NCBI GenBank assembly: GCA_001778875.1
Contig: MFIK01000041.1
Coordinates: 2,033 to 66,032, forward strand
Length of the DNA stretch: 64,000 nucleotides
Reading direction: 5' to 3'
From: Candidatus Giovannonibacteria bacterium RIFCSPLOWO2_02_FULL_43_54
GTDB taxonomy: Bacteria > Patescibacteriota > Minisyncoccia > UBA11713 > 2-01-FULL-45-33
How positions within the stretch are numbered: position 1 is the stretch's first letter; every line of letters starts with the position of its first letter. The notes beneath the pieces were generated by a model. The model saw nothing but the letters and a program-made list of their open reading frames with translations, did not search any database and was not told the DNA's origin. The translations under genes were made by a program, and so were the position numbers. This document shows, piece after piece, positions 13,954 through 30,898 of the stretch.

Positions 13954-14033
13954 CTCTTAACAAAATACTAGCTTTTTTAGGCGCAAAATAAAAGCCCCGA
14001 TCCTTATCAATAGGGTCAGGGGTTATTAAAATT

Positions 14034-15512
14034 TTACAATTCTTGGCGGTAAAGCATTCCTTCCAGTTTACGGAGATCGGAATGAAGTGAGCGGTCTTTG
14101 TCTATGAACGGAATATTCACGGCAAGATTTTCAAAAAAGTTTCTTGTCGGAGGCGAGAGTTTGTCCTCGATCTTCAGCAATGAAACGGCTTGTCTTGTGG
14201 TAATCGCTAGCGCGGCGATAATGGTCCGCAACAAATCATTCATCCGCGTGGCGGAAAGCGCGCTGTTCATCCCCATGCTGACAATATCCTGATTACTAGC
14301 CTCGCCATCGCTCATCGTAAACAGCGATTCCGCAATTGCCTCTTTGCACAGGGAATTATAGACCGATTCTATCGAAAGCCCCGTAAGCCCTTGTAAGCCG
14401 TTGTGTAAACTATCGTTTCCCGCAACCAAATACATCGGCAATGTGTCGTGATTCAGCTTCGAATCGGTCGTACTTCTGATGTATGCACGGGCGATTTCTC
14501 CGGTTCTTTTCATTGAAAGCTTGAGGCAATTCATCGCATCCGCGACGTAAGACCCGTCAAAATGCCCGCCATGCCCTATATCGTTTCCTATGATGACTGG
14601 GTTATCGGAAACGCTGTTTAATTCATCTTCAACCATATGCGCCGAATCTCTGATTCTATGCACAATTGGCCCCAAAATTTGCGGCAGGCATCTTAAAGAA
14701 TATCTGTCCTGAATCGGATCGGTTTCTTTCAGCTCTGTCGGCGACAGATTTATCACGTCTTCAATCTTTCTCAAAGATTTGCTGCCTTCCAGGGCGCGCG
14801 TGAAAATTTCCGCAATCTCCCTTTGCTCTTTGTGCTTCTTTAGCAAGTGAAGTTTTTTAGCAAAAACATTTTCGATACCTCTGTGGCACTGGAACAAAAT
14901 TGCAATCAGTTCCTGTAATATGCTTAGGATATAAGTAAAATCTATCAAAGCCAGAGCGGAAATGCCTGTCATAAAATGGGTGCCGTTCACAAGAGCCAAC
15001 CCTTCTCTTCCTTCAAGCACAAGTTTTTCCATAAATTGCATCGGGATATAGGAAGAAGGCACAAGATCTCCGCTGTTTCCGATGGATCCAAGCGACGGAA
15101 TTTCAGGAATAGAATTCTGATTGAGCATGTCGGTCAAAACGTCTAAAATTTCCATTCTTACGCCGGAATGTCCCTGTCCCAAAACCAAAAGACGCACGAA
15201 TATCGCTGCGCGAACCTGATCTGCTACAAGATTCGGCCCCGACCCGCAATTTAAGGAAAATACCAAATTCCTCTGCTTCTCTTTGTCTTTTTCGGGCGGA
15301 ACATAAAACCGGACCCGCTCACCGTACCCGGTGCCGTCACCGTAAATAATCTTTACTACGCGCATGCGCATATAATTCGCATGGGCTGTGTATATTTTTT
15401 GAGCGCGCGCTCCGTCTTTTTTTAGAAGGATTTTTTCCAATTTTCTAGCCACATCAAAAACATCAAGCAAAGAAATGCGGCCGGCCGGAGGAACGATCAT
15501 TGAAGACTCCAT
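14034..15512 (-). CDS. Aromatic amino acid ammonia-lyase family protein (HAL/PAL/TAL-like) with NSG in place of the canonical ASG MIO-forming triad
   Basis: Colinear with histidine ammonia-lyase (GSIGNSGDLVPSSY vs GSVGASGDLAPLAH; QDRYSLRCLPQILG vs QDPYSLRCQPQVMG; SDNPVII vs SDNPLVF); 492 aa. Confidence 0.75.
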   Translation of the reverse strand: MESSMIVPPAGRISLLDVFDVARKLEKILLKKDGARAQKIYTAHANYMRMRVVKIIYGDGTGYGERVRFYVPPEKDKEKQRNLVFSLNCGSGPNLVADQVRAAIFVRLLVLGQGHSGVRMEILDVLTDMLNQNSIPEIPSLGSIGNSGDLVPSSYIPMQFMEKLVLEGREGLALVNGTHFMTGISALALIDFTYILSILQELIAILFQCHRGIENVFAKKLHLLKKHKEQREIAEIFTRALEGSKSLRKIEDVINLSPTELKETDPIQDRYSLRCLPQILGPIVHRIRDSAHMVEDELNSVSDNPVIIGNDIGHGGHFDGSYVADAMNCLKLSMKRTGEIARAYIRSTTDSKLNHDTLPMYLVAGNDSLHNGLQGLTGLSIESVYNSLCKEAIAESLFTMSDGEASNQDIVSMGMNSALSATRMNDLLRTIIAALAITTRQAVSLLKIEDKLSPPTRNFFENLAVNIPFIDKDRSLHSDLRKLEGMLYRQEL

Positions 15513-15531
15513 AAGTCTATCTCCAGATTAC

Positions 15532-15559
15532 TTGTCAAAATATCTGCTTTGACTATACT
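15532..15559 (+). promoter_or_regulatory. Candidate promoter for the acyl-CoA ligase gene (TTGTCA-N16-TATACT), followed by Shine-Dalgarno TAGGAGGA
   Basis: Near-consensus hexamers in the divergent intergenic region. Confidence 0.4.
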
Positions 15560-15583
15560 ACCGGTAGGAGGAATTGCAATCCT

Positions 15584-17071
15584 ATGGAACCCTTGACAAT
15601 TTGGGAAACTTTTGAGAGAAGTAAAAGTTTTTTTTCCGATAAAACCGCGATACTTTTTGTTAACGCAGAAGGCAAAGAAGAGGCATATTCTTACCACAAA
15701 CTTTCTTATGATACAGAAGTTTTTGCGCGTGGCTTAAAAGAGAGCGGTATAGGCAAGGGAGATAATGTTTGTCTGTGTTTGTCCAATTCCCCGCTTATGA
15801 TAACAGCTTATCTGGCCCTATCTAAATTGGGAGCGGTATCGGTGTTGATTAATCCGGTCTTGCCCAAAAACCGCGTTAAGAAAATCGTTGAAGATGTTTC
15901 CGCCAAATTACTGATAGACCAAAATGGAGCAGGAGAAGTATTTTCTAAAGCGCATTCTCTCGTGGCTTTGACTTGCGGCGCGACGAAAGCGGATTGCGGT
16001 CCGTTGGACACCGCGGCTATCCTTTATTCTTCGGGAACAACCGGCGAACAAAAAGGCGCCGAGCTTACGGTAAGCAATATTCACAGCAATATCAGCTACA
16101 CAAGCGCGCTTACAGGAATGACCCCCGAAGACAGAATGATTTGTTTTCTTCCTCTTACCCATTGCTTCGGGCTCAATTTTATTTTGGGAGCTTGCTTGTA
16201 TACCGGCGCTACTTTGGTGCTCCACGAAAAATTCGATTTGTCGCTGGTTTTGGATTCGCTCGTCAAAAATAAAGTCACCATGTTTTTCGCGGTTCCGCAG
16301 ATTTACAACATGATGCTGAAACAAAAGATTGGTCCGTTTTATTTTTCTTCCGTCAGATACTTTTTCTACGCCGCGGATTCAATGTCCGTCGATTCAATTC
16401 TGGCGTGGGAACAAGAATATGGCAGGAAAATTTATACAGGCTGGGGGCTTACGGAAACCTCACCTTTTGCAACTTCAAATCACGAAGTAATCTATAAGCT
16501 TGGCAGCGTCGGCAAGCAGATTCCCGGAGTTGATGTGAAAGTTGTTGATGAACACAGCGCCGAGTTAAAGATGAAAAAAGCGACAGATATCGAAAACAAG
16601 AGCGGTTTCTTTGGTGAAATATGCGTAAAAGGGCATAACGTGATGAAAGGTTATTGGAACCGTCCGCAAGAAACGGCGGAGGCCATTGATCGCGAAGTAT
16701 GGTTTCACACAGGAGACATCGGGTATATTGATCATGAAGGGTATCTTTTCATCGTTGACCGCCTGAAAGACATGATTAATGTCGGCGGTGAAAAAGCATG
16801 GCCCGCGGAAATTGAAAAGATAATTTTACAGCACCCGGAAGTGGCCGAAGTCGGAGTTGTTGGCGTACCCAATGAAAAAATGGGAGAGGTGCCGAAAGCT
16901 TTCGTGGTCGCCAAAAATCCTGCATTAACCGCGGAAGAAATACATTTTTTTCTGAATCATCCAGAGCCGCAATTATCCAAGCACGAATTCCCGCGTGAGA
17001 TCGAATTCATAGACAAGCTCCCGCGCAATCCGTCAGGAAAAATTTTGCGGAGAGAGTTAAGGGGCAAGTAG
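15584..17071 (+). CDS. AMP-dependent acyl-CoA ligase (4-coumarate/aryl-CoA or fatty-acid CoA ligase family)
   Basis: AMP-binding motif YSSGTTGEQKG; GWGLTETS; C-terminal GDIGYIDHEGYLFIVDRLKDMINVGGEKAWP; 495 aa. Confidence 0.85.
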   Translation: MEPLTIWETFERSKSFFSDKTAILFVNAEGKEEAYSYHKLSYDTEVFARGLKESGIGKGDNVCLCLSNSPLMITAYLALSKLGAVSVLINPVLPKNRVKKIVEDVSAKLLIDQNGAGEVFSKAHSLVALTCGATKADCGPLDTAAILYSSGTTGEQKGAELTVSNIHSNISYTSALTGMTPEDRMICFLPLTHCFGLNFILGACLYTGATLVLHEKFDLSLVLDSLVKNKVTMFFAVPQIYNMMLKQKIGPFYFSSVRYFFYAADSMSVDSILAWEQEYGRKIYTGWGLTETSPFATSNHEVIYKLGSVGKQIPGVDVKVVDEHSAELKMKKATDIENKSGFFGEICVKGHNVMKGYWNRPQETAEAIDREVWFHTGDIGYIDHEGYLFIVDRLKDMINVGGEKAWPAEIEKIILQHPEVAEVGVVGVPNEKMGEVPKAFVVAKNPALTAEEIHFFLNHPEPQLSKHEFPREIEFIDKLPRNPSGKILRRELRGK

Positions 17072-17102
17072 CCCCTTTTTGTTATATTGTTATAATGAAA
17101 TT

Positions 17103-17510
17103 ATGAAAATCATCAAGATCATTTTTATAGTAATTGCTTTTTTGATAGCCGCATTGGTTGCTTTTTGGCGTTTTGCTCCGACTCGGATGATAGAAAAAGC
17201 AGCTGACAACATCGGATCTGCGGCAACCACACTTTGCCAATATCCGGTCAGGGTTAGTGGCGATGCAATGATGCCTATTTTCCAAAATGGGCAACTAGCC
17301 ATATTTTCTAAATGCATAGAAGACCGTAACAATATCGCGCCTGATGCTATAATTTTATATGAACGACCGGGAGGAACATTGCGCATTTCAGTAGTCCGCG
17401 AGCAAATCAGAGACACGAACGGCATTATGTACCGCGTTTCACAAGAAGCGCGCCAAAATGAAATTGACGAAACGCGTTCTGACAGAATCGTCGCGATTTA
17501 TAATAAATAA
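17103..17510 (+). CDS. Membrane-anchored S24/S26-family serine peptidase (LexA/signal-peptidase-like fold)
   Basis: N-terminal transmembrane helix; VRVSGDAMMPIFQNGQLAIF resembles the S24 nucleophile region; start taken at the internal ATG after the upstream stop. Confidence 0.45.
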   Translation: MKIIKIIFIVIAFLIAALVAFWRFAPTRMIEKAADNIGSAATTLCQYPVRVSGDAMMPIFQNGQLAIFSKCIEDRNNIAPDAIILYERPGGTLRISVVREQIRDTNGIMYRVSQEARQNEIDETRSDRIVAIYNK

Positions 17511-17526
17511 ACGGGATAAATTAGCA

Positions 17527-18594
17527 ATGGATCAGAAATTAGGTCTTATGCCAATAGCGCTCTTAATTTTAGTTCTCGCTGTTCTAGGAGTTGGCGGTGC
17601 GACCCTCTTTTATCCTAAAAAGCGCGTGTTTGCGCCACCGCAAATTTTTCAAGAGCAACAAGAAAAAACGAACACGTACCCAAACCAACTTGAAAATAAT
17701 ATTACCGCGCCAACGCCTTCTACGGCTCCAGCCGCAAAACCATCTGAAAATCAGCCAAGCAAACCAAAACCGTTGCCGCCTCTACCGCCAAAACCCGCAA
17801 CACCAAATTCTCTGACGCCAACTCCAAATCCCTCGACGCCAAGCGTGCCGGCTTATACACTCGTGGCGCATACAGGTGAAGTATTTGGCGCCAAAATTCC
17901 GCGTGGCTGGCGGGTAGAATCAAACCAAAGCGGGATAGATATTATTGATCCCGCCGACGCGGACACAGGAGTATCCGGAGTAGTCGCTGTAGGCTGGTTC
18001 GGCACTCAAACGCCGGACGGCTTCATTGATTTTTTGCTTCAATCCATAGGAGCATCAAATATTAAAACCGAAAACGAATCTACCGAGGCGGTTTACAATG
18101 ATCAGTCAACCGGTCTTCCTTGGGTTGTAAAAACCAGAACATTTACTTTTGTAAAAGGTGGAAAGACGCTGAAAGCCAAAGCAAGCGCCGGCGTTATGAA
18201 TGGTTACGGCCAATATATTGCCTTGATGACAGCATTCCAAACAACGCCGGAAAAATGGAGCCAATGGGCGCCGACACTTGAACGCATCGCGAAATCAATC
18301 ACTATAATCAACCCATCTATGGCCGGAGGTGCACACACCGTTCGTCTTCCTACAGCAGCAGACCTCGCAAACGATTCATCGCCACTGATGGAAGCGTGGG
18401 AATACCGAAATCGCTCGGAAGCGCAAACGTCTCACGAGTTTTCCGATGCTATCATGGGACAGGAAACCGATTTGATTTCTCCTTCGACCGGTCAAATCTA
18501 TACAGTGCCTTTTAGCGCGTATGACCCGACTAAAGGCGGATATCATAACCCAAATAATTACGGTGAAATCCTTGTTGATCCGTATCAGAAATAA
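17527..18594 (+). CDS. Membrane-anchored protein with a Pro/Thr-rich linker and a C-terminal globular domain
   Basis: Transmembrane helix LMPIALLILVLAVLGVGG followed by PTPSTAPAAKPSENQPSKPKPLPPLPPKP; start at the internal ATG after the upstream stop. Confidence 0.5.
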   Translation: MDQKLGLMPIALLILVLAVLGVGGATLFYPKKRVFAPPQIFQEQQEKTNTYPNQLENNITAPTPSTAPAAKPSENQPSKPKPLPPLPPKPATPNSLTPTPNPSTPSVPAYTLVAHTGEVFGAKIPRGWRVESNQSGIDIIDPADADTGVSGVVAVGWFGTQTPDGFIDFLLQSIGASNIKTENESTEAVYNDQSTGLPWVVKTRTFTFVKGGKTLKAKASAGVMNGYGQYIALMTAFQTTPEKWSQWAPTLERIAKSITIINPSMAGGAHTVRLPTAADLANDSSPLMEAWEYRNRSEAQTSHEFSDAIMGQETDLISPSTGQIYTVPFSAYDPTKGGYHNPNNYGEILVDPYQK

Positions 18595-18599
18595 AAAAA

Positions 18600-18624
18600 T
18601 TGACGATCCGGGATCGTCAATTTT
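18600..18624. terminator. Bidirectional intrinsic terminator (TTGACGATC-cgg-GATCGTCAA flanked by A7 and T4)
   Basis: 21-nt near-perfect palindrome between convergent genes. Confidence 0.6.
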
Positions 18625-19024
18625 GAATACGTTTCTTGCTTATCCATGCCGGAGTACGGCAATTTTCAATTTGATCTTTCGGATGTCCGGTATAAGGTTT
18701 TATATCAAGCACAGGGCTTCCTTTATACGCATCAATGCCGTCGATTTTTAAAAAATTTCCATGGCGCCTGATTAATTTCACAATGCTTAATCCTATCGGA
18801 TTCGGGCGATATGGCATGCGCGTAGCGAGCACTCCCTTTAATTGATTTATATTACACGGCTTTGCTCTTTTCATCCAACGTTTTTCCGGAGTCACTTCGT
18901 GCATCCAGTATAAAACGATGATATGTGAAAATCCGCTTATGCCGTCAAGCGCCTCATTCCATTCATGCGCAACCTCGATCGTCGACTTATCAAGAACAAC
19001 GCCTATCGGTTTCAAAGATATCAT
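18617..19024 (-). CDS. trmO: TsaA/YaeB-family tRNA methyltransferase (TrmO-like)
   Basis: MISLKPIGVV...GVLATRMPYRPNPIGLSIVKL matches the TsaA family core; start taken at the internal ATG whose codon overlaps the stop of the upstream SDR gene. Confidence 0.65.
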   Translation of the reverse strand: MISLKPIGVVLDKSTIEVAHEWNEALDGISGFSHIIVLYWMHEVTPEKRWMKRAKPCNINQLKGVLATRMPYRPNPIGLSIVKLIRRHGNFLKIDGIDAYKGSPVLDIKPYTGHPKDQIENCRTPAWISKKRIQN

Positions 19025-19794
19025 GCCAGAAATCCCCCATCGACGCGGATGACTTCTCCGGTCAAAAATTGCGGGGCAGATGTTGCGAGCCAATAAATAA
19101 CTTCGGCAATCTCTTCGGGTTTTCCCAGGCGGCCGAATGGAGTGGCAAGCTTATATCCAGCCACCATTTTTTCAGAAAGCTGTTTCGCCATATCCGTATC
19201 AACAATTCCAGGCGCCACAGCATTCACCGCGATATCGTGCGGCGGGCCGTTTTTATTGAACGGCGCTTCTTTTGCAAGAGCTCTCGTAAGCTGTACGACA
19301 GCTGCTTTGGATGCGGAATAAATCATGTTTCCGGGGTCGGCCATGAAAGCAGAAATTGAAGCTACATTAACGATTCGCCCGTAGCCGTTTGCCTGCATGA
19401 ACGGTAATACGGACTGGCACAACTTTGCGGTACCCCAGAAATTCACGGCCATTATTTTATGCACAGCGTCAAGGTCGGTCTTTATGAGCGGGGTCATAAT
19501 TTGCGGTGCGATACCCGCGACATTGATCAAGATATCTATTTTATTACATACAATGATAAGAGACCTAAACCATTGGTTAGCATTTAAATCGGTTAAGTCA
19601 AAACAATAATTCAAAAATCTCTCGCGCTTTATGGATGTTGGAAGTGATGCAATAAATACGTCTAAATATTCGCGTTTGTTTGGCTGATCAATCAATACAA
19701 GTTTTTGAAAATTTTTATCGTCGGCAAAACACTTGACGACCGCTTGTCCTATTCCTCCCGCTGCTCCGGTTATCAAAACGGTTTTTTGGGCCAT
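19021..19794 (-). CDS. Short-chain dehydrogenase/reductase (3-oxoacyl-reductase-like)
   Basis: Rossmann motif VLITGAAGGIGQAV; NVAGIA; catalytic YSASKAA; 257 aa. Confidence 0.8.
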   Translation of the reverse strand: MAQKTVLITGAAGGIGQAVVKCFADDKNFQKLVLIDQPNKREYLDVFIASLPTSIKRERFLNYCFDLTDLNANQWFRSLIIVCNKIDILINVAGIAPQIMTPLIKTDLDAVHKIMAVNFWGTAKLCQSVLPFMQANGYGRIVNVASISAFMADPGNMIYSASKAAVVQLTRALAKEAPFNKNGPPHDIAVNAVAPGIVDTDMAKQLSEKMVAGYKLATPFGRLGKPEEIAEVIYWLATSAPQFLTGEVIRVDGGFLA

Positions 19795-19885
19795 GTTATT
19801 CTCCTCTCAAGGTTATTTTCGTCTATTGGAGTTTTAGCTTATTTGCGCTAGCTTGTAAAGAGATTTGAGAATTATTGGTGTTTTT

Positions 19886-21034
19886 ATGGCTAAGGCGCGA
19901 AAAAACGACTCGTTCATTATAGCGGCGAAACGACTGCCTATCGGCAAACGAAAAGGAATGTTCAAAAAATTTACCGCGGAAACTCTCGCGGCGGCAGTCA
20001 TCAGGAGCATTATCAGAATAGATCATGGCTATATTGATGATGTTATTATCGGTAATTATGGCGGTGTTTATGAATTACCTGATGGAACACTGTGTCTTAA
20101 ACAAAATCCTGCGAAGCAGGCGGTAACGGAAGCGGGTTTCGGATCTCTCAACGCATGGACTCTCAACAAAGTTTGTAGTTCGGGACTCCGGTCCGTAATG
20201 CTTGCGGACTCGATGATACGCGCGGGGCATGCTAAGTGCGTGCTTGCCGGCGGGATGGAAAGTTTGAGCGGATTTTCAAAAGAAAATATTTTGGCGCTTC
20301 TTCGCGACCCTTTTGACGGCTATATGGCATATGAAGCCGGCGAATGGTGTGCGGAAAAATTCGGCATTGGAAGAGATGAACAGGACGATTGGGCAATAGA
20401 AAGCTACAAAAAAGCGCGCTTCGCCGTAAATTCAGATATTTTCCAAGAAGAGATATTGTCGTTTAACGGAATGTATAAAGATGAAGAGCCGCTCATCGGT
20501 CCGGATGAAAAATATATTCTTTCCGATAAAACTATTTTTGAAATATTGAACAAAACTGTCGGCGGGACAATCACCGCAAGTAATGCCTCAAAAAACGCTG
20601 ACGGAACAGCGATGTGTTTAGTGGCAAACGAAACAATCGCGAAAATGCCGGGGCTTCAGCCCCTCGGCAGAATTTTGGAACATGCTTCATATGCTCACCA
20701 TGGAGATACCAAGAGTTTTACTATCGCTCCGCCGTTCGCTATCCGCCTTGCGGTTGAAAAAGCCGGCTTGAAGATTAGCGACATTGATTTTTTTGAAATA
20801 AACGCCGCTTTTGCTTCCGTAGTGCTTTACGCGATGTGCGCGCTCAAACTTCCGGCAGAAAAAGTTAATGTAAATGGAGATGCGATTTCTTTTGGGCACC
20901 CTATCGGCGCGACCGGGACAATTTTGCTGATCAAAATGCTATATTTTTTAAAACACAGTGGCGCGAGATATGGCGTTGTCAGTCTTTGTAATGCCGGAGG
21001 CGAAGCCACAGCTATGGTGGTTGAAAGCTTTTGA
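19886..21034 (+). CDS. Thiolase (acetyl-CoA C-acyltransferase family)
   Basis: Active-site Cys region NKVCSSGLRSVMLA; C-terminal GHPIGATG and CNAGGEATA motifs; start at the ATG inside the listed ORF. Confidence 0.85.
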   Translation: MAKARKNDSFIIAAKRLPIGKRKGMFKKFTAETLAAAVIRSIIRIDHGYIDDVIIGNYGGVYELPDGTLCLKQNPAKQAVTEAGFGSLNAWTLNKVCSSGLRSVMLADSMIRAGHAKCVLAGGMESLSGFSKENILALLRDPFDGYMAYEAGEWCAEKFGIGRDEQDDWAIESYKKARFAVNSDIFQEEILSFNGMYKDEEPLIGPDEKYILSDKTIFEILNKTVGGTITASNASKNADGTAMCLVANETIAKMPGLQPLGRILEHASYAHHGDTKSFTIAPPFAIRLAVEKAGLKISDIDFFEINAAFASVVLYAMCALKLPAEKVNVNGDAISFGHPIGATGTILLIKMLYFLKHSGARYGVVSLCNAGGEATAMVVESF

Positions 21035-21087
21035 GCACAAAACAAAAAACCTGTCCTGATTATGGATCGGCTTTTTTTTATTAATTT

Positions 21088-21119
21088 CCTCACTTAGCAA
21101 TCCGATTGCTAAGTGAGGA
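21088..21119. repeat. 32-nt perfect palindrome CCTCACTTAGCAATC-cg-GATTGCTAAGTGAGG overlapping the yraN stop codon
   Basis: 15-bp arms; related to the second palindrome inside yraN. Confidence 0.6.
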
Positions 21120-21498
21120 TAATATTTTCCAGCATCCGGATTCTAGCCTTTTTACGCTCAAAATCAAGGAAAACGGCGGCGATGTCGATTTGGAAATCGG
21201 TTTCATCAGGAATCTTTCTGTCCAATAGATATGTCTTGATCGCGCGCGTTAGCCTTTGTTTTTTCCATAATCTCATATTGGCCTCCGGCATATATTCGCT
21301 CACTTGGAAACCCGGTTTCCAAGTGAGCGATTTCACCTCAATAAAGTGCAATCCGTCCTTATTTTGAGCCACAATATCGATTTCTCCCCATTTCTTCAAA
21401 TAGTTTCTTTCAACAATTTTATATCCCCTACCCTTCAGAAATCGGCAAGTGAATTCTTCCCCAATATCTCCTATTTTTCGTTTTTCTGATTTCGGCAT
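21109..21498 (-). CDS. yraN: YraN/UPF0102-family endonuclease-like protein
   Basis: GEEFTCRFLKGRGYKIVERNYLKKWGEIDIVAQ...HFIEVKS fits the YraN family; 129 aa. Confidence 0.65.
   Translation of the reverse strand: MPKSEKRKIGDIGEEFTCRFLKGRGYKIVERNYLKKWGEIDIVAQNKDGLHFIEVKSLTWKPGFQVSEYMPEANMRLWKKQRLTRAIKTYLLDRKIPDETDFQIDIAAVFLDFERKKARIRMLENIILT
21297..21329. repeat. 33-nt perfect palindrome CGCTCACTTGGAAAC-ccg-GTTTCCAAGTGAGCG, in-frame inside yraN (encodes SLTWKPGFQVSE)
   Basis: 15-bp arms with a 3-nt loop; about 70% identical to the palindrome at the gene 3-prime end. Confidence 0.6.
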
Positions 21499-21500
21499 TA

Positions 21501-22238
21501 TTAATCCTTAGCATTATCCCAGCTCATTTTCCAAATATTGCGGAACGTATCGGACAAATCTTTGTTTTCTATGATTAAACCTATTTCGTCTTTGCTCGAA
21601 AAAATGGCTATTTTATCGTCATAAATCATGATTTCGTTGGTTATATGATACTTATTTTCCGGAAAAATCCTCGCATTTCTCAAAACTAGTTCACCAATTT
21701 CTTGAGCGTGCTTACCTGCGGGGTTATCCGGCGCTAAGCCGCGAACCGATATTTTGCGTCGAGCTCGTTCGTAAACATATCGGTCAACATATTTTTTGCC
21801 CAAAACCGACTCAATATCTTCAGGATTCGTAAATGTCAAAATCTCGCTTTTTGAGTTTAACGAATCGTCATAGATTGATTTAATCCCACCAATCCCTTCA
21901 AAAAAGTAGATTTTTGGTTTTTTGGCTATTTTGTTTGCGCCAGCCAAAAATTCTGGAACAGCCGCCTCGGCTAGAGCCAGTTTTTCTTTGACTTGTTTCA
22001 CAATAATACGCGGATCTACTGCCACAAAATGTTTTTTTTTCTTTTTTAAAAATATCCGCACAATACCACGCTTTTCCAGCCGCTTCAAAATCTCGTAATT
22101 TGTGATCCTATTTAATCTTGTCCGATTGGAAATTTGGGTATTTGAGCCGTCATCAAGCTCCAAGCAAGCCAAATATACAGTAGCTTCTTTGTCGTCAAAC
22201 CCAATCCCTTCAAGTATTTTTTGTAAATTTTCAGCCAT
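21501..22238 (-). CDS. TrmB-family transcriptional regulator (N-terminal wHTH plus C-terminal sensor domain)
   Basis: N-terminus LEGIGFDDKEATVYLACLELDDGSNTQISNRTRLNRITNYEILKRLEKRGIV matches the TrmB HTH; 245 aa. Confidence 0.6.
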   Translation of the reverse strand: MAENLQKILEGIGFDDKEATVYLACLELDDGSNTQISNRTRLNRITNYEILKRLEKRGIVRIFLKKKKKHFVAVDPRIIVKQVKEKLALAEAAVPEFLAGANKIAKKPKIYFFEGIGGIKSIYDDSLNSKSEILTFTNPEDIESVLGKKYVDRYVYERARRKISVRGLAPDNPAGKHAQEIGELVLRNARIFPENKYHITNEIMIYDDKIAIFSSKDEIGLIIENKDLSDTFRNIWKMSWDNAKD

Positions 22239-22327
22239 TGTCGTAAATTATTTCTACAATATTTAGTATATATTATCCTTATAAAATAAGCAAGTTTTGA
22301 TATGCGAACCAATTTTAGTAAAAGATA

Positions 22328-22356
22328 TTGACCTAATTTAAATTTTAAGCTAAGAT
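22328..22356 (+). promoter_or_regulatory. Candidate promoter TTGACC-N17-TAAGAT with downstream Shine-Dalgarno GGAGG for ORF 22390
   Basis: Consensus-like hexamers in the divergent intergenic region. Confidence 0.35.
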
Positions 22357-22389
22357 ATAGCCAGAAGAATCTGAAATGGAGGAAAAACA

Positions 22390-22839
22390 ATGACCGGACA
22401 ATACTTGTTGGATTTAACTTCAAATTTTGGCGATCCTTTTCCATTCCATAATGTGATGCCGATGCATCCTTTTGACAAAATAAATTGGCAAACCACTATG
22501 CGCTGGGCAAATATATATTTAGTTGCTTACAAGACTAAACAAACTAATAAAAAGGTTATGCATGATTTTGTTAAATTTGCTAGAGGCATGGCAGAAAAGC
22601 CACCGCATCATAGCCTCAAGTCACTATGGAATCTGCGTGAATATTTTGGAATATTAGAACAACACCCTCGTTGTAAAGAATGTGGCCTGGAGATCGCAGG
22701 AACCTCTAGTTTATGGGATCTGGATTATTTTGAAAGAGTTCTTCTTAAACAGCCTAAAAAATATGATTATTTTTTCGAGAATTATCTTTTACCTGAAAAA
22801 TGGGTTTTGTATTATATAAAAAGCCGATCTATAGGCTAA
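22390..22839 (+). CDS. Hypothetical protein (149 aa) containing a CxxC pair
   Basis: ORF with upstream Shine-Dalgarno; no recognisable family. Confidence 0.4.
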   Translation: MTGQYLLDLTSNFGDPFPFHNVMPMHPFDKINWQTTMRWANIYLVAYKTKQTNKKVMHDFVKFARGMAEKPPHHSLKSLWNLREYFGILEQHPRCKECGLEIAGTSSLWDLDYFERVLLKQPKKYDYFFENYLLPEKWVLYYIKSRSIG

Positions 22840-22844
22840 ATACA

Positions 22845-22890
22845 AAAACTCCGATATGAATCGGAGTTTTCTTGTTTCATATGAAACAAG
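22845..22890. terminator. Two adjacent hairpins between convergent genes: AAAACTCCGA(tatgaa)TCGGAGTTTT and the 20-nt palindrome CTTGTTTCATATGAAACAAG
   Basis: Perfect inverted repeats with an A-run and T-run on either side; likely bidirectional terminator. Confidence 0.55.
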
Positions 22891-22909
22891 GGCTTTTCTT
22901 TTACACTTG

Positions 22910-24328
22910 TCAAAGCGTGTTCCAAATCAGTTTGTACAGATTATCAAATCCACGGCAGGACATGATACAAATCGCGTCCCCAGGCTTAATTTGACGTTTC
23001 ATGTGTAACAACATTGGCTTAATATCTTCAAAATTCCATGATTTCACCTGCCTACCGGTAGACAAGGCGTGTAACTTATTAAGCTGGGATGATACATATT
23101 TACCATTAAACGTTTCACGCTTTTTAAGAGAGTTGGCTTTAAAAGGCTTGTAAAGATAAACTAAATCGGCACGTTTGAAAGATTCAATGTATTGTTTCTC
23201 GAACACCCTTCGCTTCGATGAAGCAGAGCCGGGTTCAAACACACAGATAATACGTTTCATGGGAAACTTTTCTCGTACGGCATCGAGCGTAAGGCGTACG
23301 GCAGTTGGGTGATGCGCATAATCATCAATTATAGTTATTCCGTTTTTCTCTCCAATAATTTCTTGTCTGCGTTTTACGCCTTCAAATGATTCAATGGCTT
23401 TTTTAATTTTCGCATCCGGAATTTTTAAGAACTTGGCAATCGCAATCGCCCCAAGAATATTTGAGATATTGTACTTACCGATCAGCTTTGTTCGTATGTC
23501 CGATAGTGCGTGTCCATTATAATGGACATCGAAAGAAATATAATCGCCGGTAAATTTAATATTTCTTGCTTTATAATCTCCGCTTTTTACCCCATAGGTT
23601 GCGATAGGGGATTTGGCCATTTTTTGGCTTAAAATAAGGGTGTTTTTGTTTTCACATGAAACAGCTATCAGGCCGTTTTGAGGTATTAAATTTATGAATC
23701 TTCCGAATGCAAATTTGATGGCATCAAGGTCTTTATAAATATCTACATGGTCTAATTCGATATTATTTACTAAACCAATGAATGGGCGGTAATGCCAGAA
23801 TTTAGGACCTTTATCAAAAAATGCCGTATCGTATTCATCGCCTTCCAAAACAACGTATTTTCCTTTGCCCAATTTAAAACTTGAGTTAAAGTTTTTTGCC
23901 AAACCGCCAACAAAAACTGTTGGATCCAACTTTGCATATTCCAATATCCAACTCACTAAAGCCGTGATGGTTGTTTTGCCATGCGTGCCAGCAATCACAA
24001 TAGATTTTTTACCCTCAATAAATTCAGATCGAAGTATATCGGACATTGACCGATAGAGAAGTCCGTTAGAAATTGCTAATTCAAGTTCCGGATTTCCTCT
24101 GCCTATTGCGTTACCTACAACTACGATGTCCGGCTTCCAGCGTTTCATATGAAACCCATTATATGGTGTAAATACAGGTATTTTTAAGGATCTCAACATA
24201 TCTGACATTGGTGGGTAGACATCCTGATCGGATCCAGCAACCTCATATCCTTTCTTTTTCAAGAGCCCTGCAAGGCTGGCCATGGCAACGCCAGCAATTC
24301 CAATCAAATAATATTTTTTCTTCTGCAT
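22910..24328 (-). CDS. mpl: Mur ligase family protein, Mpl-like (UDP-N-acetylmuramate:L-Ala-D-Glu-meso-DAP ligase) or MurC
   Basis: N-terminus YYLIGIAGVAMASLAGLLKKKGYEVAGSDQDVYPPMSDML (Mpl signature DxNVYPPMS); ATP site GTHGKTT; 472 aa. Confidence 0.7.
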   Translation of the reverse strand: MQKKKYYLIGIAGVAMASLAGLLKKKGYEVAGSDQDVYPPMSDMLRSLKIPVFTPYNGFHMKRWKPDIVVVGNAIGRGNPELELAISNGLLYRSMSDILRSEFIEGKKSIVIAGTHGKTTITALVSWILEYAKLDPTVFVGGLAKNFNSSFKLGKGKYVVLEGDEYDTAFFDKGPKFWHYRPFIGLVNNIELDHVDIYKDLDAIKFAFGRFINLIPQNGLIAVSCENKNTLILSQKMAKSPIATYGVKSGDYKARNIKFTGDYISFDVHYNGHALSDIRTKLIGKYNISNILGAIAIAKFLKIPDAKIKKAIESFEGVKRRQEIIGEKNGITIIDDYAHHPTAVRLTLDAVREKFPMKRIICVFEPGSASSKRRVFEKQYIESFKRADLVYLYKPFKANSLKKRETFNGKYVSSQLNKLHALSTGRQVKSWNFEDIKPMLLHMKRQIKPGDAICIMSCRGFDNLYKLIWNTL

Positions 24329-24378
24329 TACAAAATGATAGCACTCTAGGCATAATTTAGAATAGTTTTGTTATAAAA

Positions 24379-24404
24379 AAAGCACAGATTTTACTCTGTG
24401 CTTT
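24379..24404 (-). terminator. Intrinsic terminator AAAGCACAGA(ttttac)TCTGTGCTTT with a T-run on the minus strand
   Basis: 10-bp perfect stem downstream of the LysM protein gene. Confidence 0.55.
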
Positions 24405-24494
24405 GTGTAATACCGCATTTTATCAAGCTTTGGCTCTTTTCGGGCCTCCGCTTAATCTTGTTATTTTTTCCTTTGACTTTCTCGCCGGAAAAAA

Positions 24495-25421
24495 TTATGC
24501 GTTATCTACAGTTTCTTTTAGTTCTGATTCCTTTGTTTTTCCGTGTTGTTGGAAATAATGTGAAAGAGCGTTTTGTGGCGAAACTTCGGTATTGCAGTCC
24601 TTGAATTTACATCTCACCTTGACCGTGTCGAACATTATGTATTGACCGCTTCGAGTCTTAAATCGTGGCATATATGCGGCGGTAGCAAGCTCTACGTATA
24701 GCGCCCCTCTTTCAATGCGAGTGCGGTCCAATTCCGTCATACATTCATTAAGTTTTAAAACCAAGCTGTCATTTTCAGTTTTCAGTCTTTTAATTTCATC
24801 ACATGAGCCTTCCTGCAGGCTCAATTCCTCGGTTTTTAGACTTAATTTGGTTTTTAGATTATTTATTTGGTTTACGGCGCCATCTCTCCAAAGCTCCAGT
24901 CCTTTCAGGGCCGTTTCTTTTTCTTTCAGGGCCACATCTTTTTCTTCTAAGTCTTTTTCCATTCCGTCTTTAAATGCTGCAGTACGGATCATTATGACGA
25001 GCAGTCCTATGAAGAGAAATCCGGCTATAATACCCACTCCGCCAAGCAAAAATGATTTTTTGGAATTTGCTTTTGTTAATTCAGCGTTTTTCTGCTTCAC
25101 CGCAATCGCTTTACGGCTTTCTTCGTTTAAAACCCTTAAAGCTTCTTTTACGGAAACGATATCGGGTATAGTGATTTTGCATCCTCTCAAAATAAGATTT
25201 TCATTTTTAATGCAACGACTGCCCTCGTTGGCCCACAAAAGCCTTTCTTTGGTGGTATCAAACCGCTTCGCGATGCGAGGCAGATTATCACCCCTTTGGA
25301 TATTATATTTGAATGTTCTTAATATGACTTGACCTCGTTCCTCAGCAAAAGACGCATCGTTATAACCAACGCTTATTACAAAACCCAAAACCACCAAAAC
25401 CGCTAAAATAATCTTTTTCAT
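24495..25421 (-). CDS. LysM-domain membrane protein with a coiled-coil and a C-terminal C2H2-type zinc-finger-like motif
   Basis: Signal/transmembrane MKKIILAVLVVLGFV; LysM YNIQRGDNLPRIAKRFDTTKERLLWAN; second transmembrane segment; C-terminal C-X4-C-X12-H-X4-H (RCKFKDCNTEVSPQNALSHYFQQH). Confidence 0.5.
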   Translation of the reverse strand: MKKIILAVLVVLGFVISVGYNDASFAEERGQVILRTFKYNIQRGDNLPRIAKRFDTTKERLLWANEGSRCIKNENLILRGCKITIPDIVSVKEALRVLNEESRKAIAVKQKNAELTKANSKKSFLLGGVGIIAGFLFIGLLVIMIRTAAFKDGMEKDLEEKDVALKEKETALKGLELWRDGAVNQINNLKTKLSLKTEELSLQEGSCDEIKRLKTENDSLVLKLNECMTELDRTRIERGALYVELATAAYMPRFKTRSGQYIMFDTVKVRCKFKDCNTEVSPQNALSHYFQQHGKTKESELKETVDNA

Positions 25422-25465
25422 TGTCAAAACCCTCCAAAATCGAAAAATAATCTGTACAAACCTTA

Positions 25466-25494
25466 ACAAAAAAGCCGCCTTTTTGCAAGGCGGC
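25466..25494 (-). terminator. Intrinsic terminator GCCGCCTT(tttgc)AAGGCGGC with a T6 run on the minus strand, downstream of the acyl-CoA dehydrogenase gene
   Basis: 8-bp perfect stem plus T-run. Confidence 0.6.
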
Positions 25495-25500
25495 AGGGTT

Positions 25501-27006
25501 TTACCTGCTTTGAAGCAGATATTCTTTGGCGCTTTCCAGCAAATGTTCCGTTTCCGCGTGGTATTTATTTGGCCACTTTAGGCGGATTTGATCGAAAATA
25601 AGATCACGCAAAAGTTCCGAATTTTGGAAAATCATAAATTCTTTAGGCCATTCCTTGGAAAACTCGCTTTTTATGAGATCCCATGCGGCCACCAAAGGCA
25701 TGATATTCGCGGTTTTTGCAGAAAGCCTTTGGTTTTTGAGTTTTAAGAAATTTCCGCCTCCCATTTCGACTTTAAGCCTGTGTTTCAGCTCCATAAGCTC
25801 CAAATGCTCCACATAAGCAGAAAACAAAAATTTGTTTTTGAACCATGCGTCTAAAATAACGCCGATCTGGACTTCCGACGCGCCTTCATAAATGTCAAAA
25901 ACAAGACTGTCCGCGACAAGCGGCGTTATCGGAGTTTCCATAACATATCCAGATCCTCCAAAAATTCGGTTTACCGCCTGAATTCTCTTTCTCGCGGCTT
26001 GCGATGCGTAAAGCTTAGCCAGCGATGCGTAATGATAAAATTCCTTGCCTTCGTCCTCCAGTTTTGCCGAATAGAAAAGTAAAATTTTGGAAATATCTAT
26101 ATCTCGCGCCAGCTCGCTGATCTCATCATAAATTTTTGAATGATTAATCAGGGGCTCTCCGAAAGTTGTGCGAAGCTGCGCGTATTCTAAAGCCAGTTCC
26201 ATGGCGTGTTCCATAACGCCGATGGCCTGCGCCGCGATCCAGTTTCTTCCATGCGCGAGTGTTGACATTGCGATTTTGAAACCATTTTCGTATTCGCCGA
26301 AAAGATTACTCTCAAACAGATGATAATTATCAAAGAAAATTTTTCCCATATGCGCGGCGTGATTTCCTAGCTTGTGGTCCGGTAATGGAATGGTCAAACT
26401 TGGAGGAGTAGGCCTAAGAAGATGTGGCAAAAAAGCTGTAATGCCTTTGGGGCCCGGCTTATTACGATTGGTGCGGGCAAACAGGATAATAAACTCTGCG
26501 ACCGGTATGTTTGTGATGAATTGTTTTTGTCCGCTTGCCAGCCATCCTCCCACAACTTTTTCCGCGAAAGTTTTGATGCCTCCCGCGTCTGATCCGTAAT
26601 CCGGCTCCGTTAGCCCAAAGGAACCCAAAATTTTCCCCACAGCAAGACGCGGAAGATATGCTTCTTTTTGGCTCTTGCTTCCGAATTTTGAAAGGGGATA
26701 GCTGACAAGAGAATTTCCGACAGCAAGTATCAATGATCCGCCCGACCAAACTCTTGCCATCTCAATCATGGCAAGCACGCCGGACAAATTGTCCGCACCC
26801 TGCCCGCCAAATTCTTCCGGAATATTTATCCCGGTCAGCCCGAGCTCTGCCATCGCATGCACAAATTCCCATGGAAAAGGCGCCCCGTGAAATTCGTATT
26901 TTATGATCATTTCTTTGATGTCTTTTCGTATATTTTGCGTCTTTTCATCCCAAAGCCGGTGTCTGACGTTATTCCTCACCATCAGATGCTCTTCGGAAAA
27001 CTTCAT
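25501..27006 (-). CDS. Acyl-CoA dehydrogenase family protein with a ~100-aa C-terminal extension
   Basis: ACAD N/M/C-domain motifs (GLTEPDYGSDAGGIKT, QKQFITN, IFGGSGYVMETPI); 501 aa. Confidence 0.85.
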   Translation of the reverse strand: MKFSEEHLMVRNNVRHRLWDEKTQNIRKDIKEMIIKYEFHGAPFPWEFVHAMAELGLTGINIPEEFGGQGADNLSGVLAMIEMARVWSGGSLILAVGNSLVSYPLSKFGSKSQKEAYLPRLAVGKILGSFGLTEPDYGSDAGGIKTFAEKVVGGWLASGQKQFITNIPVAEFIILFARTNRNKPGPKGITAFLPHLLRPTPPSLTIPLPDHKLGNHAAHMGKIFFDNYHLFESNLFGEYENGFKIAMSTLAHGRNWIAAQAIGVMEHAMELALEYAQLRTTFGEPLINHSKIYDEISELARDIDISKILLFYSAKLEDEGKEFYHYASLAKLYASQAARKRIQAVNRIFGGSGYVMETPITPLVADSLVFDIYEGASEVQIGVILDAWFKNKFLFSAYVEHLELMELKHRLKVEMGGGNFLKLKNQRLSAKTANIMPLVAAWDLIKSEFSKEWPKEFMIFQNSELLRDLIFDQIRLKWPNKYHAETEHLLESAKEYLLQSR

Positions 27007-27122
27007 TTTTTGGTCCTTTCAATCTGCAAAAAATATAGCACCAGTTAGCATCAAGTACTATTGACAAGATTTATATACTATGATATTCTCAAAATAGAAA
27101 ATTTTCCCTACCGACAGGGCTC

Positions 27123-27310
27123 AATCCGAACACCTTAAATCTTGTTGTAGGATAAGGAATTTCCTGTAGAGGAACGGAGAAAGCGTAGAATTTTGTTGTA
27201 TTTTATACGTTTTCTTCGTTCCTTGAAAATTAGGAATGGTTGAATTTAGCTTGCAGAATTGGTCTGCAAGTGTTCGGATTCAAATGAGACATAAGGTTTC
27301 AGGAGGAAAA
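27123..27310 (+). ncRNA. Candidate structured 5-prime leader or cis-regulatory RNA upstream of a small ORF
   Basis: 10-nt long-range complementarity ATCCGAACAC (27123-27132) with GTGTTCGGAT (27270-27279) enclosing several local hairpins (TTCCTgtagAGGAA; GCAGAattggTCTGC); an AGGAGG Shine-Dalgarno follows; no match to a riboswitch class I can recognise. Confidence 0.25.
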
Positions 27311-27526
27311 ATGAAAATCGTTAATATCCGAATATACGATTTAACTGTGTTTATGAAAGAAGATTTTTTAGAAGTACCAAACAACCTGAATGTTAGTAAA
27401 GAAAAAAAAGATTGGCAAAAATCGCAAAAGGGTTTCAATTGTCAGTCTTTTGCAGATTATTTAATCAGTAGACGAGGAGCCAAAAGAGTGAACTTAGAAG
27501 TTTATTCAACTGAATATAAACGATGA
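27311..27526 (+). CDS. Small hypothetical protein (71 aa)
   Basis: Strong Shine-Dalgarno (CAGGAGGAAAA) 6 nt upstream of the ATG; followed by a terminator. Confidence 0.4.
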   Translation: MKIVNIRIYDLTVFMKEDFLEVPNNLNVSKEKKDWQKSQKGFNCQSFADYLISRRGAKRVNLEVYSTEYKR

Positions 27527-27555
27527 GCCTCCAAATGAGGCTTTTTTGTTTTTTT
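27526..27555 (+). terminator. Intrinsic terminator AGCCTC(caaat)GAGGCT plus T-run
   Basis: Hairpin followed by TTTTTGTTTTTTT. Confidence 0.6.
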
Positions 27556-27620
27556 AACTTAAATAAACAATCTTATCCGATCGGTTGCGTTTGTTTAGTT
27601 TGATCGGATATAGTTTGATT

Positions 27621-27662
27621 AAAAAAACGGCTAAGTGGCAGGCTTAGCCGTTTGTTTTTTTT
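27621..27662. terminator. Bidirectional terminator CGGCTAAG(tggcagg)CTTAGCCG flanked by A7 and T-rich runs; overlaps the meaB stop codon
   Basis: 8-bp perfect stem with flanking homopolymers. Confidence 0.55.
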
Positions 27663-28374
27663 CTATAAATTTTTTATGGATAAAAAGTCCTTCAACGACC
27701 TCTGTGATACCCGAACCGGTTTCGGCGTTCGCAAGATATACTTTCTTTCGCCAGCCGTCATCCAGACATTGTTCGCCGAGAACCAGCTTTGCCGAGGCAA
27801 AGAATTTTTTGCCTGATCTGAAATCTTCGCGGTCGTTAACCACAAAAATATTCGCTTCTTCGCTCTGTCCGGCCTTTTCCAGATTTAAGGAGTCTCCCAG
27901 AGGCTCTATTACCTGGACGAGCGTATCAACGTGTTCGCGTATTTCAACATCGGTTTGTCCCGCTCCAGCGGTTTCGACGATAACGACATCGGAGAATAAT
28001 TTTGAATAAGCGATGATCTTGGAAAAGGAATCTGTGAGAGCAAACCCTTCTCCTCTTGTCGCGAGGCTTCTGATAAATAGTCCTTTGTCACAATCCAATT
28101 CGTCACTCCTTAAATTCCTGCGGTCTCCCAGTATTGCCCATCCTCTTTTTTTTGAGCTTGGATCAATAAGCAGAGCGACTACTCGCATGCCCTTTTTTCT
28201 GAATGATGGGATAAGCCGGCCGATAAGGGTGCTTTTCCCTGCGCCGGTAACGCCCGTGACGCCGATGACCCAGGTATCCGAGCTGTCGATATGCATTTCC
28301 ATAGTCGGATATTTTTGGAAGCAGCCGATAATATAAGCCAAAGCTTGCCTTTCAAGTATTCCTATTTTTTTCAT
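27631..28374 (-). CDS. meaB: MeaB/ArgK-type G-protein chaperone of methylmalonyl-CoA mutase
   Basis: P-loop GVTGVTGAGKSTL; LIDPSS; ETAGAGQ; 1-nt overlap (TAATG) with the mutase gene. Confidence 0.85.
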   Translation of the reverse strand: MKKIGILERQALAYIIGCFQKYPTMEMHIDSSDTWVIGVTGVTGAGKSTLIGRLIPSFRKKGMRVVALLIDPSSKKRGWAILGDRRNLRSDELDCDKGLFIRSLATRGEGFALTDSFSKIIAYSKLFSDVVIVETAGAGQTDVEIREHVDTLVQVIEPLGDSLNLEKAGQSEEANIFVVNDREDFRSGKKFFASAKLVLGEQCLDDGWRKKVYLANAETGSGITEVVEGLFIHKKFIEKKQTAKPAT

Positions 28375-30413: not shown

Positions 30414-30508
30414 TTTTGACTGTATATTCTGCCAAAACTATAGCACCAGAACGCTTATTTGCAATAAGTGTTTTTTTGTGCTTTTCTGAAAGAAGATAGG
30501 TTCAAAAA

Positions 30509-30898
30509 ATGAGAACGATTACCAAGCATGTTCCCGCGAAAACAATCACATCGTATCAGTGTAGCAGATGTAAAACCAAATATCGGAGCAAAGCAAAGGC
30601 ACTACAATGTGAAGCCCAGATTACGGAAGAAAAAGTATTCAAAATTGGGGAGAGGGTGACTTGGTGTGAGCCTCGTCATTGCCAAAGCTATGATAAGTAT
30701 TACAAGCTTGACGGCAAAGTGAGGAAAATTCTCGGCCCAACGTTACCGGACGAGGAATATAATCTTAAATGGCTCGGTGGTAGGCTTACCGGAAAACATG
30801 TCTTTATATATAATGTTAGTTGGCGATGTCCGCATTGCAAAGAGGTTTTCGACGGCCAATTTTACTCGGCCGAACTAAAAAAAATCAAAACCCGCTAA
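30509..30898 (+). CDS. Hypothetical zinc-ribbon protein (two CxxC pairs)
   Basis: CSRCK...C and CPHCK motifs; 129 aa. Confidence 0.4.
   Translation: MRTITKHVPAKTITSYQCSRCKTKYRSKAKALQCEAQITEEKVFKIGERVTWCEPRHCQSYDKYYKLDGKVRKILGPTLPDEEYNLKWLGGRLTGKHVFIYNVSWRCPHCKEVFDGQFYSAELKKIKTR

Follow-up and report, generated by a model that had tools for sequence, protein, structure and literature searches.

Two palindromes at the yraN gene of a Giovannonibacteria genome are probable solo copies of a REP/RAYT-like hairpin family of the candidate phyla radiation

Repetitive extragenic palindromic (REP) sequences and the REP-associated tyrosine transposases (RAYTs) are regarded as a system of extragenic repeats belonging mainly to the Proteobacteria. 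Both REP/RAYT and the IS200/IS605 insertion sequences (ISs) are well described (PMC5581495, PMC6006769, PMC3733652), and the foot of a REP carries a conserved GTAG or CGTC (PMC3733652), a guide tetranucleotide (PMC6006769). In the literature searched, we found nothing linking RAYT, REPIN or REP to the candidate phyla radiation (CPR), Patescibacteria, Parcubacteria or Saccharibacteria. Here we describe two palindromes, P1 and P2, at the yraN gene in a stretch of 64,000 nucleotides (the window, meaning the whole stretch analyzed), which was assigned in our analysis to Candidatus Giovannonibacteria RIFCSPHIGHO2_02_43_13 (GCA_001778555.1, MFHI01000034.1; CPR/Parcubacteria; 43.6% G+C). By that assignment, this is the genome that P1 and P2 share with P0172, a transposase introduced below. 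The two palindromes belong to a family whose members stand on both sides of a Y1/HUH transposase gene, in this genome as well as more widely in the CPR, and tolerate in-frame coding positions and overlap with a stop codon. P1 and P2 are probably solo copies of REP/RAYT-like hairpin elements that tolerate coding sequence. The features concerned are as follows.

21087-21119, no strand: P1, solo hairpin repeat, a 33-nt perfect palindrome, TCCTCACTTAGCAATC-C-GATTGCTAAGTGAGGA, with 16-bp arms and one central base
21296-21330, no strand: P2, solo hairpin repeat, a 35-nt perfect palindrome, TCGCTCACTTGGAAACC-C-GGTTTCCAAGTGAGCGA, with 17-bp arms
21109-21498, minus strand: yraN (UPF0102), encoding a predicted PD-(D/E)xK nuclease (Pfam UPF0102, 64 bits), host of P2
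19865-21034, plus strand: thiolase gene (Pfam Thiolase_N/C), convergent with yraN; context, outside the element

P1 lies inside the 74-bp gap separating the stop codons of the thiolase gene and yraN. The final Leu-Thr codons of yraN and its TAG stop (…ATC CTC ACT TAG) come from an arm of P1, the stop itself (CTA at 21109-21111 on the plus strand) falling within the right arm. P2 is in frame in yraN and codes for S57-L-T-W-K-P-G-F-Q-V-S-E68; CTC ACT is read as Leu-Thr, in the same frame, in P1 and P2 alike. The centres are 210 bp apart, and the spacer is 176 nt of conserved yraN coding sequence (21120-21295). The original prediction had located both palindromes here, one over the stop codon and one in the gene, each slightly shorter than given above. 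It had put the identity of their arms at about 70%; the relation holds, and the figure is nearer 76-79% (26 of 34 positions identical in register, 11 of 14 in each core arm). Its statement that such palindromes are rare by chance is borne out, as the shared pattern CTCACTT-N8-20-AAGTGAG occurs twice in the window and in 0 of 100 dinucleotide-preserving shuffles. A stricter family detector returned P1 and P2 alone, with no match in 20 shuffles, and perfect palindromes with arms of at least 13 bp number just four in the whole 64 kb. Folded as single-stranded DNA (ssDNA), P1 reaches -15.0 kcal/mol (z = -12) and P2 -18.1 kcal/mol (z = -9.6). A chance origin of P1 and P2 is thus excluded.

Beyond the window, members of the family are recognized by the foot (CT)CACTT[G/A]G...C[C/T]AAGTG(AG), by a short loop usually containing CNG, and by four to five variable inner base pairs per hairpin that change always in compensating pairs. 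An exact-pattern scan (CTCACTT-N6-CCG-N6-AAGTGAG) over 185,579 species genomes returned 43 loci against about 35 estimated by chance; the raw count is therefore uninformative, and the signal lies in which matches are perfect palindromes. These are nearly all from the CPR, most non-CPR matches being non-palindromic. Perfect or near-perfect copies, with compensated inner arms, come from Giovannonibacteria, Yonathbacteria, other Patescibacteria, Saccharibacteria and one bin labelled Bdellovibrionales. The 29-nt core of P2 recurs unchanged in a Saccharibacteria locus (L016), L029 has a P1-like core (AGCAACC), and a P1-type copy, TTCTCACTTAGCAATCCGATTGCTAAGTAAC, occupies an unrelated intergenic site of a relative (L051:6034-6059). 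When the 8-kb loci were searched with a profile, genome-specific copies were found in L029 (two), L014 and L011 (three together), L024 (three) and L030 (three). L015 carries a tandem pair of family hairpins, and inverted doublets occur at a few loci (L015, L072, L102).

The copies in the pattern-scan loci lie at intergenic gene ends and at in-frame intragenic positions. Those in RsmI (L029), LigA (L011) and RecJ (L012) leave the open reading frame intact, with the Pfam domain spanning the hairpin. The flanks of the transposase genes described below, roughly 420 kb, hold about 34 dispersed candidate copies, and some of these are in frame, in DnaG primase, Fmt, ApbE and a PMT-family glycosyltransferase. 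The hosts RsmI, LigA, RecJ, DnaG, Fmt and ApbE are all intact, and their Pfam domains span or flank the hairpins. The sequence of the repeat itself sets what is readable. Two frames are open in the GG variant (LTW.P..QVS and HL.T..PSE). In the TAG variant one frame reads Leu-Thr-stop, which is how P1 terminates yraN. The internal copies of the transposase gene are read in the third frame, their feet being altered such that no TGA arises. The earlier suggestion of a palindrome family tolerating coding regions is upheld by copies at the P0172 locus (three), in L051 and across the CPR, in frame in six genes. It had spoken of this genome; the family spans the CPR, and the window holds two copies alone. 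One further locus, L005, was first taken for an orthologous yraN P2 site from its similar flank and was rejected; its copy lies just 3' of a gene that we presume, from its sequence and without a profile check, to be pheS.

The link to an enzyme comes from L030, where family copies are found ahead of a gene with a Pfam Y1_Tnp (IS200-like) match, within that gene and straddling its 3' end. A tblastn search with this Y1 protein detected no gene for such a transposase either in the window or in the remaining pattern-match loci. A protein search with it gave 6,263 homologues at E <= 1e-10, and one of them, P0172 (A2W54_00025), is from the window's own genome, on another contig and outside the window. 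Three hairpins accompany the P0172 gene.

Upstream hairpin: CTCACTTGGCAACCGGGTTGCCAAGTG, starting at the stop of the preceding gene and ending 13 nt before the ATG
Downstream hairpin: TCACTTGGCAACCGGGTTGCCAAGTGA, beginning directly after the stop
Internal hairpin: CAACTTGGCAACCGGGTTGCCAAATTG, in frame, coding for QLGNRVAKL

Their inner arm is GGCAACC. In each arm it departs by one base from that of P2 (GGAAACC) and by two from that of P1 (AGCAATC). The arrangement was followed through 80 metagenomic loci (L057-L136; 476 kb) encoding P0172 homologues that are 50-100% identical. A hairpin stands just upstream of the gene in 66 of 77 scorable loci, with a modal distance of 15 nt from CYAAG to the ATG, and just downstream in 55 of 76, modally 3 nt past the stop. 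In total, 191 perfect family hairpins occur in the 476 kb, compared with 0-1 in each of 10 shuffles. The gene also has two fixed in-frame hairpin sites, about 150-210 and about 420-480 nt from the ATG, filled in 44 and 40 of the 80 loci, respectively; an example of an internal copy is L052:4180-4200. These internal hairpins are always in the same frame, with CTT a Leu codon in 84 of 85. Internal and flanking copies have the same inner arm in 40 of 41 loci; hence the hairpins of one locus evolve in concert, and such locus-specific arms indicate copying or homogenization. The TrxB/GAPDH neighbourhood is kept in L058, L068, L093, L097 and L103 at 52-74% protein identity, which on this comparison is more easily reconciled with vertical inheritance of a RAYT-like gene than with an IS that hops, without settling the matter. 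Two diverged homologues, P0141 and P0218, both come with a longest contig of 651,549 bp and are probably paralogues of one complete genome. In the Saccharibacteria gene of L030 (L030:1055-1715, minus strand), a single in-frame TGA directly precedes the internal hairpin and could reflect a pseudogene, a sequencing error or recoding.

The transposase itself can be classified from several sides. Pfam Y1_Tnp matches the L030 homologue with 29 bits, and P0172 has a precomputed match; H80 and H82 (the HUH motif) and Y140 are invariant in our alignment of the family (A2). The best and only NCBIfam match is the REP-associated tyrosine transposase NF047646. A sequence profile of the P0172 family gave no match against the PDB. 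The AlphaFold model of P0172 has the order β-α-β-β-α-β-α, and its top Foldseek matches are exclusively the TnpA proteins of IS608 (2a6m), ISDra2 (2xm3) and IS200 and the E. coli RAYT (4er8). On the Pfam and NCBIfam matches, the invariant residues and this predicted structure, P0172 is a Y1 HUH enzyme. Some of these CPR proteins already bear the name RayT in Joint Genome Institute annotation, assigned by homology.

The yraN locus was then compared between relatives, with YraN identities given relative to the window protein.

L049, YraN 79% identical: P2 identical (36/36 nt); P1 absent
L048, YraN 74%: ACTTGGCGACC-A-GGTCGCCAAGT, with two compensated inner pairs (K/F to R/R) and decayed outer arms; P1 absent
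L139, YraN 91%: P2 lacking 3 nt in the right outer arm; P1 intact with the same flanks
L138, YraN 85%: an unrelated perfect palindrome, TTGACGCTCC-G-GGAGCGTCAA, at the P2 site; P1 with one mismatch
L137 and L050, YraN 86% and 73%: a hairpin of a third type, its loop being GCTAAAGCT or GCCAAGGCT; P1 absent
L051, YraN 83%: short loop without a hairpin; P1 absent

The same site thus holds P2, a decayed P2, either of two other hairpin families or none, which makes the yraN loop a hot spot of palindrome turnover. Between L049 and the window, the gene is 75% identical outside P2. Among codons for identical residues, 35 of 92 differ synonymously in that part of the gene, as against 0 of 12 within P2; judged by this alignment, P2 is preserved at the nucleotide level. 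P1 is restricted to the closest relatives, those sharing the convergent thiolase gene. In loci lacking P1 (L048, L049, L051, L137, L050) yraN stops one codon sooner (...VIL*/NL*) and is followed by unrelated sequence, which looks terminator-like by eye in L048, L051 and L137. Both palindromes, with identical immediate flanks and the 210-bp spacing, are also found in L039 (MHYA01000143.1), a contig deposited as Planctomycetes bacterium GWF2_42_9 and probably a mis-binned piece of a Giovannonibacteria genome.

At the protein level, the AlphaFold model of YraN (mean predicted local distance difference test, pLDDT, 84) has a strand at residues 49-59 that terminates in E-V-K-S-L-T, followed at residues 60-70, in the P2-encoded peptide, by a predicted coil with the lowest confidence of the protein (block mean 63). 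In an alignment of 32 homologues (A1), the close relatives have P2-type loops (WKPGFQV, WRPGRQV), loops with other inserts (ARPSYAKASEGKD, WRPSVFAKATTDV, LRERQF), or a short loop with six residues fewer (EVKSIS-NPNFRPE), and remoter Parcubacteria YraN proteins have a loop similar in length to that of the window protein. One protein, P0004, is 90% identical to the window YraN and has the third-type loop peptide ARPSYAKASEGKD, a reading from the protein alignment alone. The loop had been described as longer than in typical YraN proteins, which is true by six residues relative to close short-loop homologues and not relative to other Parcubacteria. Whether its 12 residues are an insertion was to be decided by alignment. 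The loop does differ between relatives; S-L-T, however, is the ancestral end of the catalytic E-V-K strand, and the net gain over the short-loop alleles is six residues. With the strand ending at 59 and the coil at 60-70, P2 occupies a permissive loop, yet it does not constitute a clean 12-residue insertion. We also observed two allele types of the central part of YraN (window versus L051, L048 and L049), one having EYMPEANMRLWKKQR and a hairpin loop and the other NFRPEDAVRAWKKER and a short loop. The proteins that carry them are about 80% identical elsewhere, and recombination within the middle part of yraN is therefore suggested.

Set against the described systems, the CPR family resembles REP/RAYT, as represented by E. 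coli TnpA_REP (PDB 4ER8) and the Pseudomonas REPINs, in parts of its organization. A REP is a stable stem-loop of about 20-40 nt, a range within which P1 (33 nt) and P2 (35 nt) both fall. Both systems comprise dispersed, solo hairpin-forming palindromes, hairpins flanking a Y1/HUH gene that has the look of a vertically inherited gene and not of a multi-copy one, and genome-specific hairpin variants with clustered copies and occasional inverted doublets. There are also differences. The arms of CPR hairpins are usually perfect. Whereas REPs number tens to hundreds of copies, the CPR family apparently has tens at most. REPs are extragenic, while P2 is in frame, P1 lies over a stop codon and many further copies are intragenic and in frame. 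Two fixed sites within the CPR transposase gene hold in-frame copies, which sets it apart from RAYT genes; its protein does not qualify as a RAYT equivalog of NCBIfam, and its host clade is the CPR, not the Proteobacteria. P1 and P2 do not form a doublet unit like that of a REPIN, given that 176 nt of coding sequence lie between them, that their inner arms differ and that each occurs in the absence of the other, P2 in L049 and P1 in L138. Different from classical REPs are the lack of a GTAG/CGTC tag, the frequent in-frame copies in essential genes and the two fixed copies within the transposase gene, and the occurrence of several hairpin families at one codon position is a further departure.

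The elements of the IS200/IS605 family (IS200, IS608, ISDra2) are related through the enzyme, the CPR protein being predicted to have the same Y1 HUH fold. A gene lying between sub-terminal hairpins, in a very small unit of about 0.7 kb, is common to both, and by analogy the CPR hairpins would likewise be recognized on ssDNA. In contrast to IS200/IS605, the CPR data show conserved synteny, independently dispersed solo hairpins and internal in-frame hairpins, and in the CPR loci compared there was no evidence of the gene and its ends moving as a unit. A different kind of parallel is offered by the Rickettsia palindromic elements (RPEs), which likewise are in-frame palindromes within genes of a reduced genome, adding a peptide at tolerated positions while the gene is kept. 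RPEs are about 100-150 bp long, restricted to Rickettsia, unrelated in sequence and not known to have an associated transposase. By this description the CPR elements, 21-35 nt long and with a cognate Y1 enzyme, differ from RPEs in both length and host.

The resemblance to IS200/IS605 raises the question of whether the hairpins are simply the terminal structures, left and right, of an autonomous IS of the IS200 type that comprises the gene and its two end hairpins and measures about 0.7 kb. P1 and P2 would then be orphan ends or derivatives akin to miniature inverted-repeat transposable elements, and not parts of a domesticated REP/RAYT system; the enzyme would work by the same chemistry, and the lifestyle would be another. 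We consider this unlikely. It would agree with the tight bracketing of the gene by hairpins, with Foldseek placing the IS608 and ISDra2 TnpA proteins at least as high as RAYT, with the missed NCBIfam cut-off for RAYT, and with the flanking loops, which on a rough reading have the same orientation in about 60% of loci, as in IS200/IS605 ends. However, no identical multi-copy units were seen, the TrxB/GAPDH neighbourhood kept at 52-74% transposase identity looks vertical, P0141 and P0218 are probably diverged paralogues within one complete genome, and solo hairpins outnumber the genes. Moreover, the gene contains two in-frame internal hairpin sites, and we know of no IS200 with this feature.

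Three further explanations dispense with the enzyme. It is quite improbable that the hairpins function, as RNA or DNA structure, in the yraN transcript itself (for processing, a translational pause or termination), with selection for whatever stable hairpin stands there and a family likeness that is secondary, even though P2 is conserved at 36 of 36 nt within a gene that is 75% identical, the L048 copy differs by compensated pairs, and three unrelated hairpins in the same loop might mean that structure is kept while sequence changes. P1 does match a terminator pattern, on the plus strand with the tail TAATATTTTC; on the yraN strand it is followed by AAATTAATAAAAAAAA, and this lack of a T-run means that it is not a yraN terminator. 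Against such a structure also stand the close short-loop homologue of L051, which has no hairpin at all, the presence of the same sequences in unrelated genes, at intergenic sites and around the transposase gene across phyla, and the absence of an Rfam match, the search of 20800-21700 in E-value mode having returned just sub-threshold miRNA and leader noise. Local intra-strand template switching (quasi-palindrome correction), with P1 and P2 as independent events and no mobile element involved, is still harder to credit. The perfect arms, the compensation of all inter-copy differences and the reuse of the ancestral S-L-T (TCG CTC ACT) as the left arm would all suit it, and the process may keep arms perfect, but it cannot explain the family: an identical 29-mer in a Saccharibacteria genome, feet in common with the transposase-flanking hairpins of the same genome, and a P1-type copy elsewhere in a relative. 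Least credible of all are operators for a dimeric regulator, such as the TrmB-family protein encoded directly upstream in the operon. The palindromes are symmetric, the TrmB gene (21501-22238) abuts yraN, and the 210 bp between centres, or 20 turns, would allow looping; yet copies elsewhere lie not beside TrmB genes but in housekeeping genes and around the transposase gene, and some yraN loci of relatives have the adjacent TrmB gene without P1, P2 or both.

Several observations nonetheless weigh against regarding P1 and P2 as REP/RAYT-like elements. The NCBIfam RAYT match reaches just 23.3 bits where the cut-off is 80, and the P0172 model is of moderate confidence (pLDDT 63). The feet, CTCACTT.../...AAGTGAG with a conserved CAC/GTG, contain no GTAG or CGTC as those of REPs do. 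Copy number looks low, with at most two exact-pattern matches per genome among the 185,579 genomes and just two family copies in the 64-kb window, where neither the nhmmer profile (11 copies) nor the strict or one-mismatch detector found a third member. Because their inner arms differ from those of the transposase-flanking copies, P1 and P2 are not recent copies of the latter. An empty site with the flanks of P1 or P2 was not found, and the different hairpins at one yraN codon position could reflect selection for any hairpin. Finally, we infer mobilization of the hairpins by P0172 by analogy.

If the REP/RAYT-like interpretation is correct, the cognate enzyme would be a RAYT-like Y1/HUH ssDNA transposase of the IS200 superfamily, conserved over the CPR/Patescibacteria and represented here by P0172. 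By analogy with IS608 TnpA and the E. coli RAYT, P0172 would bind the hairpin in the ssDNA of replication forks, make its cut at the foot, and either copy hairpins or swap them, at new sites or at sites already holding one. Existing hairpins would draw further events, and such attraction would account for the 210-bp distance between P1 and P2, the clusters elsewhere, the concerted evolution and the change from one hairpin family to another in the yraN loop. As CPR genomes have almost no intergenic space, surviving copies would be those at gene ends, such as P1, or those in frame, stop-free and in permissive loops, such as P2, selection keeping within genes solely in-frame, stop-free copies. 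In this way P1 would have replaced the last codon and the stop of yraN, perhaps also serving as a 3'-end hairpin for convergent transcripts, and P2 would have come to sit in the loop past the catalytic E-V-K strand of YraN.

A more specific version, that this is a phylum-spanning, largely vertical CPR Y1-hairpin system chiefly exchanging or homogenizing occupied sites and not performing classical transposition, is put forward as a tentative and rather doubtful proposal. Compatible with exchange are the four hairpins per transposase locus (two flanking, two internal) that evolve together, the three unrelated hairpin families at one yraN codon position in close relatives, and the in-frame copies in the essential DnaG, LigA, RecJ, Fmt and RsmI. 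Such a Y1-hairpin system may have a host role, e.g., in autoregulation of the transposase or in marking gene ends where intergenic DNA is scarce.

For the window, the REP/RAYT-like interpretation accounts for both palindromes and for the altered C-terminus of YraN. More generally, it would mean that a related REP/RAYT-like system has spread through the CPR, with hairpins routinely in frame in essential genes and in the transposase gene. If true, this would explain many odd short insertions in CPR proteins, with consequences for annotation, alignment and structure prediction, and would provide a natural experiment on the tolerance of proteins for hairpin-encoded peptides. It would also offer a simple and testable enzyme-substrate pair, P0172 and a hairpin of 27-35 nt, in a lineage on which there is hardly any biochemistry.

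Other palindromic sequences in the window have different affiliations. The ymdB gene (11796-12812) has an in-frame insert of about 70 residues at 12106-12315 that splits its YmdB Pfam match in two. The original prediction had counted this large insert with the yraN palindromes; as a member of the CTCACTT family it was rejected, since the 11-copy profile does not match it and it occurs a single time in the window and the loci compared. It contains several short G+C-rich hairpins, e.g., GTCCCGCC-AC-GGCGGGAC and CCTGCC-GGAC-GGGCAGG, and may be a pile-up of small hairpin elements. At the C-terminus of YmdB (12726-12764, SKPASAKATAGKA) lies a member of a third hairpin family, CCTCC-GCTAAAGCTAC-GGCGGG, with the GCTAAAGCT loop. 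Its siblings are in the yraN loops of L050 and L137 and at L050:1388, L096:4208 and L129:4906, the one at L050:1388 being, by coordinates, inside a Mur-ligase gene called at 699-1982. This family encodes the recurrent peptide motif AKA[ST].

A perfect palindrome at 18596-18624 (core 18600-18620), AAAATTGACGATCC-G-GGATCGTCAATTTT, lies between two convergent genes, starting 2 nt past the TAA of the plus-strand gene and holding the TGA (18617-18619) of the minus-strand, TrmO-like gene. It is near-identical to the hairpin at the yraN P2 site of L138, TTGACGCTCC-G-GGAGCGTCAA, from which it is one compensated pair apart, and together the two look like a second hairpin family, with two members found in the window and the loci compared. 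A 28-nt loopless perfect palindrome at 38362-38389, TCAACTTTACGCGATCGCGTAAAGTTGA, which includes GCGATCGC, is intergenic, ends 4 nt before an ATG and could be an operator. Elsewhere in the window, at about 14000-33000, are genes for methylmalonyl-CoA mutase and MeaB, an acyl-CoA dehydrogenase, a thiolase, a short-chain dehydrogenase/reductase (SDR), an AMP-dependent ligase and an aromatic amino-acid ammonia-lyase, an acyl-CoA metabolism that is, to our knowledge, unusually rich for a Parcubacteria genome.

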